From Scyliorhinus canicula (Eukaryota), in the NCBI RefSeq assembly GCF_902713615.1, contig NC_052148.1:222665336-222729335 (forward strand): a DNA stretch of 64,000 nt, in the 5' to 3' direction. Positions 39,780 through 43,877 of the stretch are shown here, piece by piece. The notes below the pieces were generated by a model. The model saw only the letters and a list, made by a program, of their open reading frames with translations, did no database searches and was not told the origin of the DNA. Numbering within the stretch: the stretch's first letter is position 1; every line of letters begins with the position of its first letter. The translations under genes were made by a program, and so were the position numbers.

Positions 39780-40086
39780 TATTGGCAAACTCTGACGGGA
39801 CTCGATTAGAAGTGACTCTCCGAGAGAACCCACAAACTTTGAATCCAATTGCGAGAAAGAGAAAGAACCACAAGTGCAAGTCCCACATCGACCAAATAAC
39901 CGAACTTCGGAAGTGTGTACTAACCCGTATGCGTACCTAACAGGAAGAGTAAGGTAACGTGTTAGAATTGTGTGCAACTATCGAGACATTGTGAGCCAGA
40001 AAATAGCTTAAGCCATACCCATTGTTCAAATTGCCACCTTATTCCCCTGTCCCAAATTAAAAGTAGAGAAAGAGACAAGAGAAGCA

Positions 40087-41590
40087 ATGGCCAGTAAAGC
40101 AATGGAAAGATTGATGAATCCACAGGAACCCGAGGTCACAGTGACCAACAGAGCAGAGTAATGCCCCATATGGGAGGAAGAGTTAAGGAAATACTTAAAG
40201 GGGAAAGGATGGCCCCTTTGGTCAAATGTTTGGGCTAATGATGAGTCAGGTTCACCTTAGTAGCTTCCCGACCCAGTATGATAAAGCCCATCAAGATACA
40301 CAGCGCGCAGTCCTGGTAAGACAGGAAACAGAACAACAGGTCGCCCAGCTAACTAACAAATGCGCAGATTTGAAAGCAGCTTTGAGAGCGTTCCACAGCT
40401 CCACTAAGGAACAGAGGCAGAGTACCGTTGACCATGCTAAATGCCGACAAAAGATAGAAAAGTTACAGTCGCTACTCTCAGTACAGAATGGCTTCAGGTA
40501 CACTTTCGGGCAGGATTTAGATGAGGAAGATGCTCCCGATTGGCAAGAGTTAAATGAAAGCGCCCAAAAATACGTAGAGGACATGGGATATCAAAATTAA
40601 ACCCCCCACACCCCAAAAAGACCTGCAGTGCCGACTGCACAGGGAGCACACATCCCCACTTACAATTCGACCCCTATGAATCCGGTTACCACAGAACCAG
40701 ATCATCGGATCAGGAGGAGCCTGATATCGTTTACACCACCCCACTATCCATAACCCAATTAAGATACGCTTGCACGAAATTTATTCCATTCCAGCCTCCA
40801 GCCCACCGCAGACCCGCCAACTTCTTTGAGGGGGTGCGCCAACAAAAAGTTAGGCTGAGATGATCGGGAGGAAGTAAAGCTAATAGTTATAAGCCTTCGC
40901 CGGTCCGTAAGGTCAGCTTTGCCAGAACCACAAAATGTAGCAGGAGGAACCCTACATGAAATGAAAACAGCCATATTAGATGCCATCGGGTATAACAAAG
41001 GAGATCCAGTCAAGGGTTTAAATCACTGCAGGCAAAAGAAGGGAGAACATCTGACCGCATTTGCTGGTCGTCTATGGATTAATTTCACGGCAGTATACGG
41101 ACAATTGAACTGCATGCACCTAAATGAGGAGGACACCACTAAATGGTCCCGTACCTTAGTCTCGCATGCCACAGCCGCAGGTCAAAAGGCTTGTGTAAAC
41201 TACGACCCCGCAGACCACACACACAATGAGGTTTGGGTACTTGAACGACTTTCTAGAGCATAGGAACAAACCCTACACCGACAGACAGATCAGGACCAGA
41301 TAGAAGCAAACATGCACCGAGTTCGGACTAGCCAGGACCCAGCAGGGATAAACGAGGGTGGACACGAGGAACAGCACCCCAGAGCACAGGCACCACGAGG
41401 TTGTTACAATTGTGACCAGGTTGGACATTACGCCCGCGATTGCCAACAAAACCCCCCGAACCATCAACGATACCAACAACCAAACCCCTCACCCAGAAAC
41501 AATGTTAGGCCCATGCATAATGTTAGCACCTGTTCAGGCGACTTAGCGTTTAACTCCATAGATTCATGGTGTTCGAACTCCCCAACTTGG
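40087..41590 (+). pseudogene. gag: gag with coiled-coil segment and one CCHC knuckle
   Basis: MASKAMERLMN start; coiled-coil-like region 40270-40480; CA-like QKKGEH..AFAGRLW; zinc knuckle at ~41402. Confidence 0.75.
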
Positions 41591-43092
41591 GTCGGTGACA
41601 CACGCTAGGACAAATCAGGCAGACCAGTAGTTACAGGCACAGTCCGGGGACATACAGTCGATTTTCTTTGGGACACAGGAGGATCCCGCACCACTTTAAA
41701 CTCCTCCACCATGTTTCAACAGGACAAATGGCCCACCACATACACCATGACCCTGAGTGGATTCACAGGCCACATGCAACAAGGATATATCACAGCTCCC
41801 ATATCCATCCAGATAGGGAACATTAGCACCAAACACCCCGTTGTTTTAGTTGACTTACCCCAAACCGCAGAACACATCTTACTTATTGACCTTATGAACT
41901 CCCAGTTTTGACTTTCGTTTGACCCAGTAAACAAATGTGTCTGGCGAATGGCTCCCGCTATGCTCACAGTAGGGGATTATGAAAACAGGATTTGCTCAGT
42001 AGGGGACTATTGGTTTAATCCACAAACAATTAGTGCAGACCAGACGATTAGAGAGGTCCTCATAAATCACAATTGTAGGAAGATCCCAGGTACAGTGAGG
42101 ATTGCAGGTCCCGGTCCAAAGGCGTAAAAGCAATATGGTTTCCCACAGTAAGCCAAGGGTGAGATTTTGAAGGTTACTAACAGTTTGCTAGACCAAAGAG
42201 TTACTCGACCCGGAGTTTCCACAAGTAATGCCCCAATTTGGCCCGTAAAGAAGCCCGATGGTTCATGGCGACTAACGCTCGACTACCGAGAACCTAACAA
42301 GGCAACCCCTTTAGCAGCCCCCACTGATGCTCCGAGTACCGCAACCATGCTCAAACAGGGAGTACAGGCAAAGTATTTCACAGTGCTGGACATCAGCAAC
42401 GGCTTTTGATCCATCCGTTAGACAGGGCCTGCCAGTATAAATTCGCATTTACGTTTCAAGGGCAGCAGTACACATGGACATGCCTCCCACAAGGATTCCA
42501 TAACTCCCCCTCCATTTTATACCGACAATTGGCCAACGGACTTTCTAGATTTTCTCGACCCGAAAGCCTAATACAATATGTAGACCATCTGTTCTTGCAA
42601 ACGGACACAAAAGAGGAACACGTAGAGCTCTTATCTGGATTACTTGGCCTACTGCAATCAATCGGATGTAAGGTAAACCCCAAGAAGGCCCAAATTTTAA
42701 AGGAAAGGGTTCTTTATTTAGGCACCATCCTCACCCACGGGAAGAGAGAAAACAGATCGAATCCATCGTTAAATTGCCCCTGCCCCAAAATGTCATTGCA
42801 CTCCGGTCATTCCTAGGTTTGGTAGGATATTGCAGACATTGCAGAAATTATACAGATGGTTTTGCCACCAAAGCAGCCCCACTCTCAGAGTTCCTTAAAA
42901 AGAACGCCCCTTGGGAATGGCTTCTGCAGCACACAGACGTCATTGACGATTTAAAACATACCCTAGGCACAGCCCCTGCTTTACAAGTTCCAGACTCAGA
43001 CTTGCCCTATGCCATAGAAGTAGTAACCACCGACCGAACCCTACTTGCTTGCAGTCTTTTGGGCAGTACAGTACTTTGCGTACATCACAGGT
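41590..43092 (+). pseudogene. pol: pro-pol (protease, RT, connection/tether), disrupted
   Basis: FLWDTGGS; LDISNGF*SIPL; FAFTFQGQQYTWTCLPQGFHNSP; RSFLGLVGYCR; LAVFWAVQYFAYITG. Confidence 0.88.
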
Positions 43093-43877
43093 GCGTGGAA
43101 TACTCCGGGGTCCTGCTAATCCTCTTCAGGTAGGAGAATCACCCTGGACTTTCTTCAGGATGAAAGGGGGACATAGCCCCATTATTGGAGAATCCTGCTC
43201 CTTATTTCATCCATTGAATGAACTCTTGAGGAAGTGTCTTCTGTGTAATTGGATATGGGAGTGTGACAAGGCATTCCAGTTGTGTTGAAGTAAGTTTGTA
43301 GATGTTACAATTCTAGTACATTAAGATGTCTTCAGAAAGACTAAGCTAACATGTGATACCTCTCCATATGGAGTCAGTGCTGTGACCTCTCGTGTGTTAG
43401 ATAATGGTGAGGAGTCACAGATGCATTTGCCTCACACACCCTCAAATGCCAGTGAGTGGAATTGTGTTCAGATTTAAATCCAAAGTATTGTCTTTGATTT
43501 TTGGAGTAAGAGAATTTCACAAATACATGTATGGCCATGGATTTACAATCAAAACTGATCAGAAGAATCCAAATTCTCTGCTACCCACTTTAGCAGCAGC
43601 TTGAATGCAAAAAACGCCTTTGATTTTGTCTGCTTATCAGTACAATATTAAATACAGACGATTGGAAGATCATTGTAATCCAAGACAATGTTTAGATTGC
43701 CAATCCTCAGAGATAGAGCCCAAACGGAGGATGTGTTTTACTTTTCACATACAGATGAGTTGCCAGCAGATGAGACAGTCGAACAACCCTGTATTGGCAC
43801 GGGTGTACAACTATTTCACAAATGGGTGGCCAACATTGGATTTAGAAACCAGGCCATTTTTTATGTGTAAGAATAAG

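Follow-up and report, generated by a model that had tools for sequence, protein, structure and literature searches.

A small putative membrane-protein gene in the env position of a high-copy, env-less endogenous retrovirus family, probably of the SnRV group, in the shark Scyliorhinus canicula

A 64,000-nucleotide stretch of the genome of the shark Scyliorhinus canicula (assembly GCF_902713615.1, contig NC_052148.1, positions 222,665,336 to 222,729,335; the window in what follows) contains a fragment of an endogenous retrovirus (ERV) on its plus strand at 39777–43095, where homology to sister copies runs from the primer-binding site (PBS) through the start of the tether. The fragment is a dead, internally deleted copy that has lost its long terminal repeats (LTRs), and it belongs to an older subfamily of a high-copy lineage, which has spread in repeated bursts to thousands of copies and includes a recent young subfamily. 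The explanation that we favor, with moderate confidence, is that the lineage belongs to the snakehead retrovirus (SnRV) group of ERVs (class III, clade Huo), that its examined copies lack env, and that a small membrane-protein open reading frame (ORF) serves as a likely mini-envelope. Judged from sequence comparisons, the small ORF is almost certainly a real gene under selection, and the family very probably sits in the SnRV group rather than among lokiretroviruses, foamy viruses or Gypsy elements. A mini-envelope role in particle exit or cell-to-cell passage is proposed by analogy and more tentatively.

Copies, Layout and Transcription of the Family

When the genome was searched at the DNA level with the window element, 2,715 first-look candidates were returned, and the 40 that were scored are, apart from the window itself, 86–89% identical to it; because at least 40 genome copies match at this level of DNA identity, the motifs read in the window are not due to chance. 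In the twenty copies fetched, the tether is followed by a second RNase H and an integrase, then by a short 3' region and an LTR. Through a protein search we reached a young sister group at 80–81% identity, in which many open frames of 1,408–1,411 amino acids (aa) are preserved. Eleven young copies share one layout, consisting of an LTR of ~966 nt, the PBS, gag (~580 aa), an in-frame TGA followed by CGG, pol, a pol-LTR gap of 1.6–1.7 kb, a purine tract and the second LTR, and their pol encodes protease, reverse transcriptase (RT), tether, RNase H, H2C2, rve and SH3/GPY domains. The in-frame UGA at the gag-pol junction is present in all 11 young copies and in 17 of 17 aligned old copies (of 23 given), and the exact junction motif has 2,293 matches in the genome compared with none for the control, with TGA in 99 of the first 100 listed. 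A 4-bp target duplication flanks each of the five young copies checked.

LTR pairs differ by a Kimura two-parameter distance of 0.001–0.0085 in eight of eight young copies and of 0.094 in two old copies with partial LTRs. Under the mammalian rate of PMC7947760, these values correspond to 0.2–1.9 million years for the young and ~21 million years for the old copies, and under a rate ten times lower, as assumed in PMC4422223, they correspond to 2–19 and ~210 million years. The family, as distinct from the window copy, is transcribed in the sense direction with polyadenylation in the LTR: raw RNA reads from the same species yielded 1,175–3,469 family reads in each of four runs and covered all 30 bins of a young copy, one read orientation was dominant in the three oligo-dT runs, and a poly(A) loose end was found inside the LTR. 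A homolog search returned a Mustelus record with 66% identity over 28% of the query, a scan of viral contigs for the family gave no match, and 19 loci from a metagenome scan, all distant or partial (22–51% identity), were not used.

A Small ORF in the env Position

Old, middle and young subfamilies all carry, in the slot where env would be expected, an ORF of 113–118 aa. The encoded protein has a hydrophobic, signal-like N-terminus whose sequence differs between subfamilies, an S/T/P-rich stalk (48–57%) with an invariant Asn (sequon N29) and TW(C), a Trp/Tyr-rich helix that runs into one transmembrane (TM) segment, the motif QTxRxxKW, and a tail in which a Tyr, a Pro, a Phe and a Gln are invariant. 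The 15 residues after the TM segment include 6–7 Lys or Arg in seven of seven proteins, and modeling predicts a helix over residues 40–90.

The substitution pattern argues for a protein-coding gene. In four young pairs the dN/dS of the small ORF was 0.09–0.19, compared with 0.08–0.13 for pol in the same pairs and 0.07 for gag; one pol control pair (L033/L049) was excluded because it was out of frame. Between subfamilies, which are ~30% apart in DNA and whose small proteins are 34–51% identical, dN/dS was 0.17–0.38 where dS was measurable (seven of nine pairs), and three old-old pairs gave 0.24–0.73. Pooled over six pairs, pN/pS was 0.23 in frame, 0.94–1.82 in three other readings and 0.58–1.24 in the flanks, and third-position codon periodicity was confined to the small ORF. 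The 150 best young matches are all open, with frames of 116–156 aa. Upstream of the small ORF, 10 of 11 copies have acceptor-like motifs at a distance of 70–100 nt, and the leader contains donor-like motifs.

Other observations pull the opposite way and have to be weighed against these. The count of 150 open frames is biased toward the best matches, and one old-old pair had a dN/dS of 0.73, as expected after decay. The signal peptide and topology of the small protein are predictions from hydropathy alone, and no homolog, family or fold was found for it in Pfam, Atlas, PDB sequence or viral fold searches. Four RNA runs contained no splice joint to the small ORF. Like the database searches, a comparison with 20 env-bearing loci of the genome gave no match to it, which leaves descent from an env without support. 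The window copy has itself lost its 3' half, and the small ORF is tied to the window only through its subfamily. A bump in read depth before the small ORF was considered as a subgenomic RNA and rejected, as it ends at an A-run and is interpreted as internal oligo-dT priming.

Absence of env and the pol-LTR Gap

To avoid picking only ORF-positive copies, we drew 20 junction matches in which the small-ORF motif was lacking. The small ORF was present in 18 of these, within a pol-LTR gap of 1.0–2.5 kb, and the other two were cut off after pol. None of the 20 young copies matched either env query, and no env-sized ORF was found in the 18 that reach the gap, the remaining two being truncated. The F-like env that a preliminary description of the window, made from its letters, had named as support for a lokiretrovirus is absent from these copies. 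Genome-wide searches with PF00523 and PF03539 were blank, as were their controls, and weigh neither way. In the old subfamily of the window copy, the small ORF was reached in 12 of 20 stretches, the rest being truncated or interrupted. Env-bearing ERVs do exist in this genome (78 TLV_coat matches); at the 20 such loci fetched, Pol pieces are 26–42% identical to those of the family, and three of their RTs fall in class I.

Among the env-bearing loci, L122–L125 and L132 represent a class I-like ERV family with an open env of 563–568 aa and a CX6CC motif, and L123 also holds an ERV-L/S-like RT piece. The pol-LTR gap contains a non-coding block (L033:7910–8390 and homologs) that is 84–94% conserved across subfamilies and shows no codon periodicity; it is a candidate cis-acting RNA element for export, packaging or splicing. 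A second upstream ORF, of 90–118 aa in some copies, was rejected as it is not kept across copies and gives no frame signal.

Classification of the Family

RT comparisons bore out the proposal in the preliminary description that the element is a deep-branching retrovirus and not a Gypsy. In a careful tree of 37 of 84 rows, a subset chosen to keep every group and with lokiretrovirus (loki) rows labelled by motif, the window and the family joined at 100/100, lay inside Retroviridae (100/99) and outside class I (99/99), and stood apart from Gypsy; the element is neither class I nor class II. A quick tree of all 84 rows grouped the family with SnRV and with frog and coelacanth ERVs (SH-aLRT 92). 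An approximately unbiased (AU) test rejected a clade of the family with the loki-motif rows (p-AU = 0.0216), and the lokiretrovirus label given earlier did not survive this test or the comparison of motifs. Homolog searches gave no record under the name of foamy virus, lokiretrovirus or SnRV; as the SnRV reference we used database protein P0245, whose RT is letter-for-letter equal to the SnRV row of PMC7947760. In the alignments of that paper SnRV RT reads AIWPVGKPDGSWRL, LDISNGFWSI and LPQGFHASP, as in the window, and loki RTs read VDVANGFWTM and CPFGYSNSP; at the last site the family reads LPQGFHNSP. The motifs originally read in the RT region of the window are present (APIWPVKKPDGSWR, LDISNGF, FAFTFQGQQYTWTCLPQGFHNSP, QYVD and FLGLVGYCR), but LDISNGF ends in a stop, the SIP read after it spans a frame change, and QYVD belongs to YVDH.

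Search scores placed SnRV above loki-motif and foamy proteins. With a single 282-aa RT query, phmmer gave 310–347 bits for frog and coelacanth ERVs, 257–261 for turtle/ostrich-type ERVs, 242 for SnRV, 189–198 for loki-motif proteins, 179–187 for foamy viruses, 164 for murine leukemia virus and 109 for Ty3. The C-half of the window's own RT scored 90 bits on SnRV, 62.5 on foamy and 38–46 on loki proteins, with the order otherwise unchanged. The closest database matches are Pol proteins of frog and coelacanth that are annotated as "NYNRIN-like" (48–53% identity), and when SnRV Pol was searched on the genome the top matches listed had the open-frame lengths of the family. Gag is likewise of the SnRV type. 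SnRV Gag is described as unmyristoylated, with a coiled coil and one zinc finger, and Gag-Pol as made by stop suppression (PMC2717909); the family Gag has no myristoylation site, a coiled coil and one zinc finger, and gag and pol share one frame with a candidate suppressible UGA, for which readthrough is predicted. Chong et al. contrast ERV4 with SnRV-related ERVs, in which GPY and a zinc finger may be present. An SnRV-related lineage has already been published from a chimaera (PMC4422223) and the SnRV clade is reported across all vertebrate groups; as a matter of classification, the shark element would add one more member to a group already described.

Several results sit less easily with this placement. 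The base of the non-class-I group is polytomous in the careful tree, and SnRV was not recovered as the sister of the family. Neither RT tree had named foamy, ERV-L, CmiERV or Odin rows, the loki rows bear labels assigned by motif, and the AU test was run under LG+G4, which rejects true clades more often (5/71 in tool trials). The integrase is 45–46% identical to loki-motif proteins compared with 33% to SnRV. On three of four loki-motif proteins the tether scores 78–82 bits and the integrase 260–267 bits, as against 35 and 117 on SnRV.

These scores are shared ground with lokiretroviruses, as are the dual RNase H of the young Pol (PF17917/PF17919 followed by PF00075) and a coiled-coil Gag such as that of Bik-1 (bioRxiv 2024.03.25.586437). 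A lokiretrovirus would place the element in the sister lineage to all retroviruses and make it the first record from a cartilaginous fish; none of six cartilaginous genomes was positive in the PMC7947760 supplement, in agreement with the preliminary description. A dual RNase H is, however, common to all retroviruses rather than loki-specific, and frog, coelacanth and reptile-type ERVs outscore the loki-motif proteins on both tether and integrase. Given also the SnRV motif set of the RT, its position inside Retroviridae with the AU result, and the absence of env from 20 of 20 young copies examined, we regard this label as highly improbable. The idea of a mosaic, raised in the same description, holds to a slight degree: in residues 465–600 (tether) and 880–1240 (integrase) of the young Pol, loki-motif proteins outscore SnRV, and in the RT the reverse holds. 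A domain mosaic near the origin of CGIN1/NYNRIN is possible from these sequences; the base of the integrase tree, which included no CGIN1 row, was unresolved.

A foamy-like ERV (FLERV) of cartilaginous fish would account for the best PDB matches, which are foamy Pol, and for an unmyristoylated coiled-coil Gag. The PDB contains no SnRV-group RT, however, and the best foamy score is 187 bits, below the 242 of SnRV. In addition, a CCHC knuckle is present, which spumavirus Gag lacks as a Cys-His box (PMC8278194), gag and pol share one frame with a stop, and fish FLERV rows read IDLANG and YIDD (PMC7947760 alignments), making this assignment just as improbable. ERV4, which is described as having neither a zinc finger nor GPY and a 5-bp target site duplication (TSD) (PMC4299795), was rejected because both motifs and a 4-bp TSD are present here. 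Ty3/Gypsy (Metaviridae) is ruled out by the dual RNase H and by an RT outside the Gypsy clades; the preliminary description had named a Gypsy placement, or a single Gypsy-type RNase H without env, among the grounds for abandoning its reading, and of these only the lack of env was found.

The Window Copy and Its Surroundings

The features of the window fragment are collected in Table 1. Every gene of this copy is interrupted by stops and frame changes, the YVDH in place of YxDD leaves the catalytic pair incomplete, and ~277 nt near 40250–40254 in gag and ~100 nt at 43043 in the tether are deleted. A scan of the window found no LTR beyond the two bases of the 5' LTR, no second RNase H, no integrase and no env belonging to the copy. 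Pfam matches were obtained for zf-CCHC (E = 9e-8), protease (E = 9e-7) and RT (E = 9e-17).

Much of what had been read from the window was recovered. Gag has a coiled-coil N-half and the single CCHC knuckle, the donor-like AAG|GTAACG lies at 39951–39959, and the PBS resembles the complement of tRNA-Arg: against the 3' end of a genome sequence like tRNA-Arg(UCU), 19 of 22 positions pair and one base is extra; in one sister copy the match is 18/18. Within the leaders of the family, CTAACAG is kept in 7/7 and GTAAGG in 6/7. The capsid C-half, nucleocapsid, protease and RT N-half do share a frame as described, but not as a single open ORF, the family having its UGA at the gag-pol junction; the window copy itself lacks this UGA. 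The post-RT stretch PYAIEVVTT...LAVFWAVQYF is a degenerate tether as proposed, but it spans frame changes and the ~100-nt deletion, and the element, which had been extended to 43180, ends at 43095. Atlas features of Gag match retro-Gag (0.90–0.93); a low-confidence single-sequence structure model (pLDDT 44) showed long helices, and a fold search with it gave no match.

Table 1. Features of the ERV fragment in the window
Feature	Position	Strand	Basis
Last two bases (CA) of 5' LTR	39777..39778	+	Sister homology begins at 39777; sister LTRs end AACA before the PBS
PBS, tRNA-Arg(UCU)-like	39783..39805	+	19/22 positions paired with tRNA-like 3' end in locus L144
Leader motifs CTAACAG (branch/acceptor-like), GTAAGG and GTAACG (donor-like)	39937..39959	+	Motifs read; splicing putative
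gag, broken: coiled-coil N-half, capsid region, nucleocapsid; no Gly2	40087..41563	+	tblastn to young Gag, 50–60%
CCHC zinc knuckle, single	41396..41449	+	PF00098, E = 9.3e-8
gag-pol junction; in the family UGA, mostly followed by CGG, window copy stop-free	41564..41569	+	Copy comparison
Aspartic protease (DTG), in-frame stop near start	41570..41911	+	PF13975, E = 8.8e-7
RT and connection, stops/frame changes near 42410 and 42750, YVDH	42128..43000	+	PF00078; trees
Start of tether (degenerate RNase H), ~100-nt deletion at 43043, end of copy	43000..43095	+	PF17919, weak

At loci matching the PBS, ARAGORN found no intact tRNA and Rfam gave weak tRNA matches in two of four. Loci L142, L144 and L145 hold 3' halves of tRNA-Arg(UCU) that end in CCA and are fused to unrelated upstream sequence, and they are likely retro-copied primer tRNA. 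In a variant of the old-subfamily LTR, a second PBS-like sequence, found in both the 5' and the 3' LTR, lies ~35–45 nt before the LTR 3' end (L013:270, L020:260, L032:301, L014:8094 and L030:9318, in element orientation), and by its sequence it is a captured copy of the primer site.

The fragment is adjoined directly on its left by a Harbinger-like DNA transposon (~36020–39776, with DDE_Tnp_4/PF13359 at 36416–37266), and decayed Gypsy RNase H/integrase pieces lie to its right (~43150–43950 and 45390–45660). A separate Gypsy occupies the start of the window (90–2814); both VPFGVSN and the DAS motif attributed to it, as ESDAS in its RNase H, were read. A solo LTR of the young sister lineage lies at 47959–48936 on the plus strand, 91% identical to the LTR in locus L164, with TG...CA ends and a 4-bp target duplication (ACAC), inside a SINE. 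It is not the missing LTR of the 39777–43095 fragment.

Discussion

Established retrovirology provides the frame in which this element would operate: reverse transcription would be primed by tRNA-Arg(UCU), Gag-Pol would arise by UGA readthrough, and new copies would be made by reverse transcription and integration. The small ORF would be read from a spliced mRNA, like env, and would give a glycosylated type I membrane protein. With its basic tail this protein could anchor the unmyristoylated Gag particles at the membrane for budding, a role open to a membrane protein because this Gag lacks Gly2; foamy Env anchors the budding of foamy particles. Alternatively, it may act at cell contacts and provide a route into neighboring (germ) cells, as does Drosophila sORF2. 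Because the ORF occupies the env slot and is under selection as tight as that on pol, it most simply serves the element's own spread, and on these grounds we tentatively prefer the mini-envelope.

Somewhat less likely in our view is that, with the classification the same, the small protein is an accessory factor that modulates the host and the element copies itself purely inside the cell. The signal-like N-terminus, sequon and S/T/P stalk would suit a small surface glycoprotein better than a fusogen, and the Atlas neighbors of the protein are generic small TM proteins, all below 0.9. Vpu-type and adenovirus E3-type proteins, which counter a restriction factor or alter surface proteins, offer analogies. 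SnRV itself has accessory ORFs (PMC12193657), and high copy numbers are reported for env-less ERVs. An accessory role accords less well with a position in the env slot behind acceptor-like motifs and with selection as strong as on pol in every young pair tested, which fits own spread, and the protein has no known target or family.

The mini-envelope proposal can also be carried further, to a FAST/sORF2-like protein of ~114 aa that replaced the envelope in a vertebrate retrovirus lineage and, over several bursts up to recent times, let capsids cross directly between cells and enter the germ line. We consider this unlikely; an env-independent capsid route has so far been described for insect Metaviridae (bioRxiv 10.1101/2025.03.14.642691), and a true retrovirus would have arrived at it independently. 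A last reading, in which the small ORF has no protein role and is either what is left of a decaying env or part of a conserved RNA element, would agree with the lack of a splice joint in four RNA runs and the conserved non-coding block directly upstream, but is very unlikely given the frame-specific pN/pS of 0.23, the third-position periodicity, the in-frame length changes and the fact that the three subfamilies have signal-like N-termini that differ in sequence.

Env-less ERVs normally lose env outright, and here a minimal membrane gene has been kept at a dN/dS like that of pol. Screens that require env or a long ORF (criteria given in PMC10435555 and PMC4422223) would miss such elements. If the protein does serve particle exit or passage, the family would fill a gap between infectious retroviruses and retrotransposons and would parallel, in a vertebrate, the sORF2 of insects. 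Given thousands of copies that are recent and transcribed, it would also rank among the main forces shaping the 4.2-Gb genome, and a 114-aa protein is readily tested in isolation. A literature search, with Repbase/Dfam and most subscription papers outside it, found no description of an env-less ERV of the SnRV group that carries such an ORF, and the family may already be catalogued in Repbase or Dfam.

Among known systems, the closest is SnRV with clade Huo (CmiERV lineage I and the SnRV-like ERVs of coelacanth and frog), which shares the RT motifs and includes the best named RT score. SnRV has an Arg PBS. The family resembles it in this primer site, in the coiled-coil, one-finger, unmyristoylated Gag, in a Gag-Pol that would be made by stop suppression and in the GPY motif. 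It differs from SnRV in having no env and no frames of the size of ORF1-3 or 3'ORF, with one small membrane ORF instead, and in an integrase only 33% identical. CmiERV-I of Callorhinchus milii is defined with env (PMC4422223), whereas this family lacks it, and its thousands of copies compare with 100–700 ERV insertions reported for the elephant shark; SnRV-like ERVs are described as the main ERV class in coelacanth. An env-less SnRV-like frog transcript has been reported, with no small ORF mentioned in the consulted part of that account (PMC4131045). Lokiretroviruses (Wang and Han, PMC7947760) share the dual RNase H, the coiled-coil Gag and similarity in tether and integrase, but the family RT lies inside Retroviridae and reads LPQGFHNSP rather than CPFGYSNSP, and there is no F-like env. 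The ERV4 elements of crocodilians and turtles (PMC4299795) share an RT outside classes I and II and are set apart by the two missing motifs and the 5-bp TSD noted above.

For the small protein itself, the nearest parallels are sORF2 of the Drosophila MDG1 group and reovirus FAST proteins. Its setting differs from that of sORF2: the host element belongs to Retroviridae rather than Metaviridae, the ORF lies in the env slot and not in the 5' leader, and the protein has a signal-like N-terminus and a sequon. The myristoylation motif MGxxxS/T is absent from nine of nine aligned small proteins, as it is from two of six Drosophila sORF2 proteins. There is no match in sequence or fold, and the likeness is drawn from sequence features alone; the published screen for sORF2 covered arthropod Gypsy elements (bioRxiv 10.1101/2025.03.14.642691). 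In common with sORF2, this is a short single-pass protein in an env-less LTR element, its 113–118 aa fall inside the 60–210 aa range, an amphipathic juxtamembrane helix is predicted, and a polybasic patch follows the TM segment, with 6–7 Lys/Arg in 15 residues where the sORF2 rule asks for at least 3 (bioRxiv 10.1101/2025.03.14.642691).

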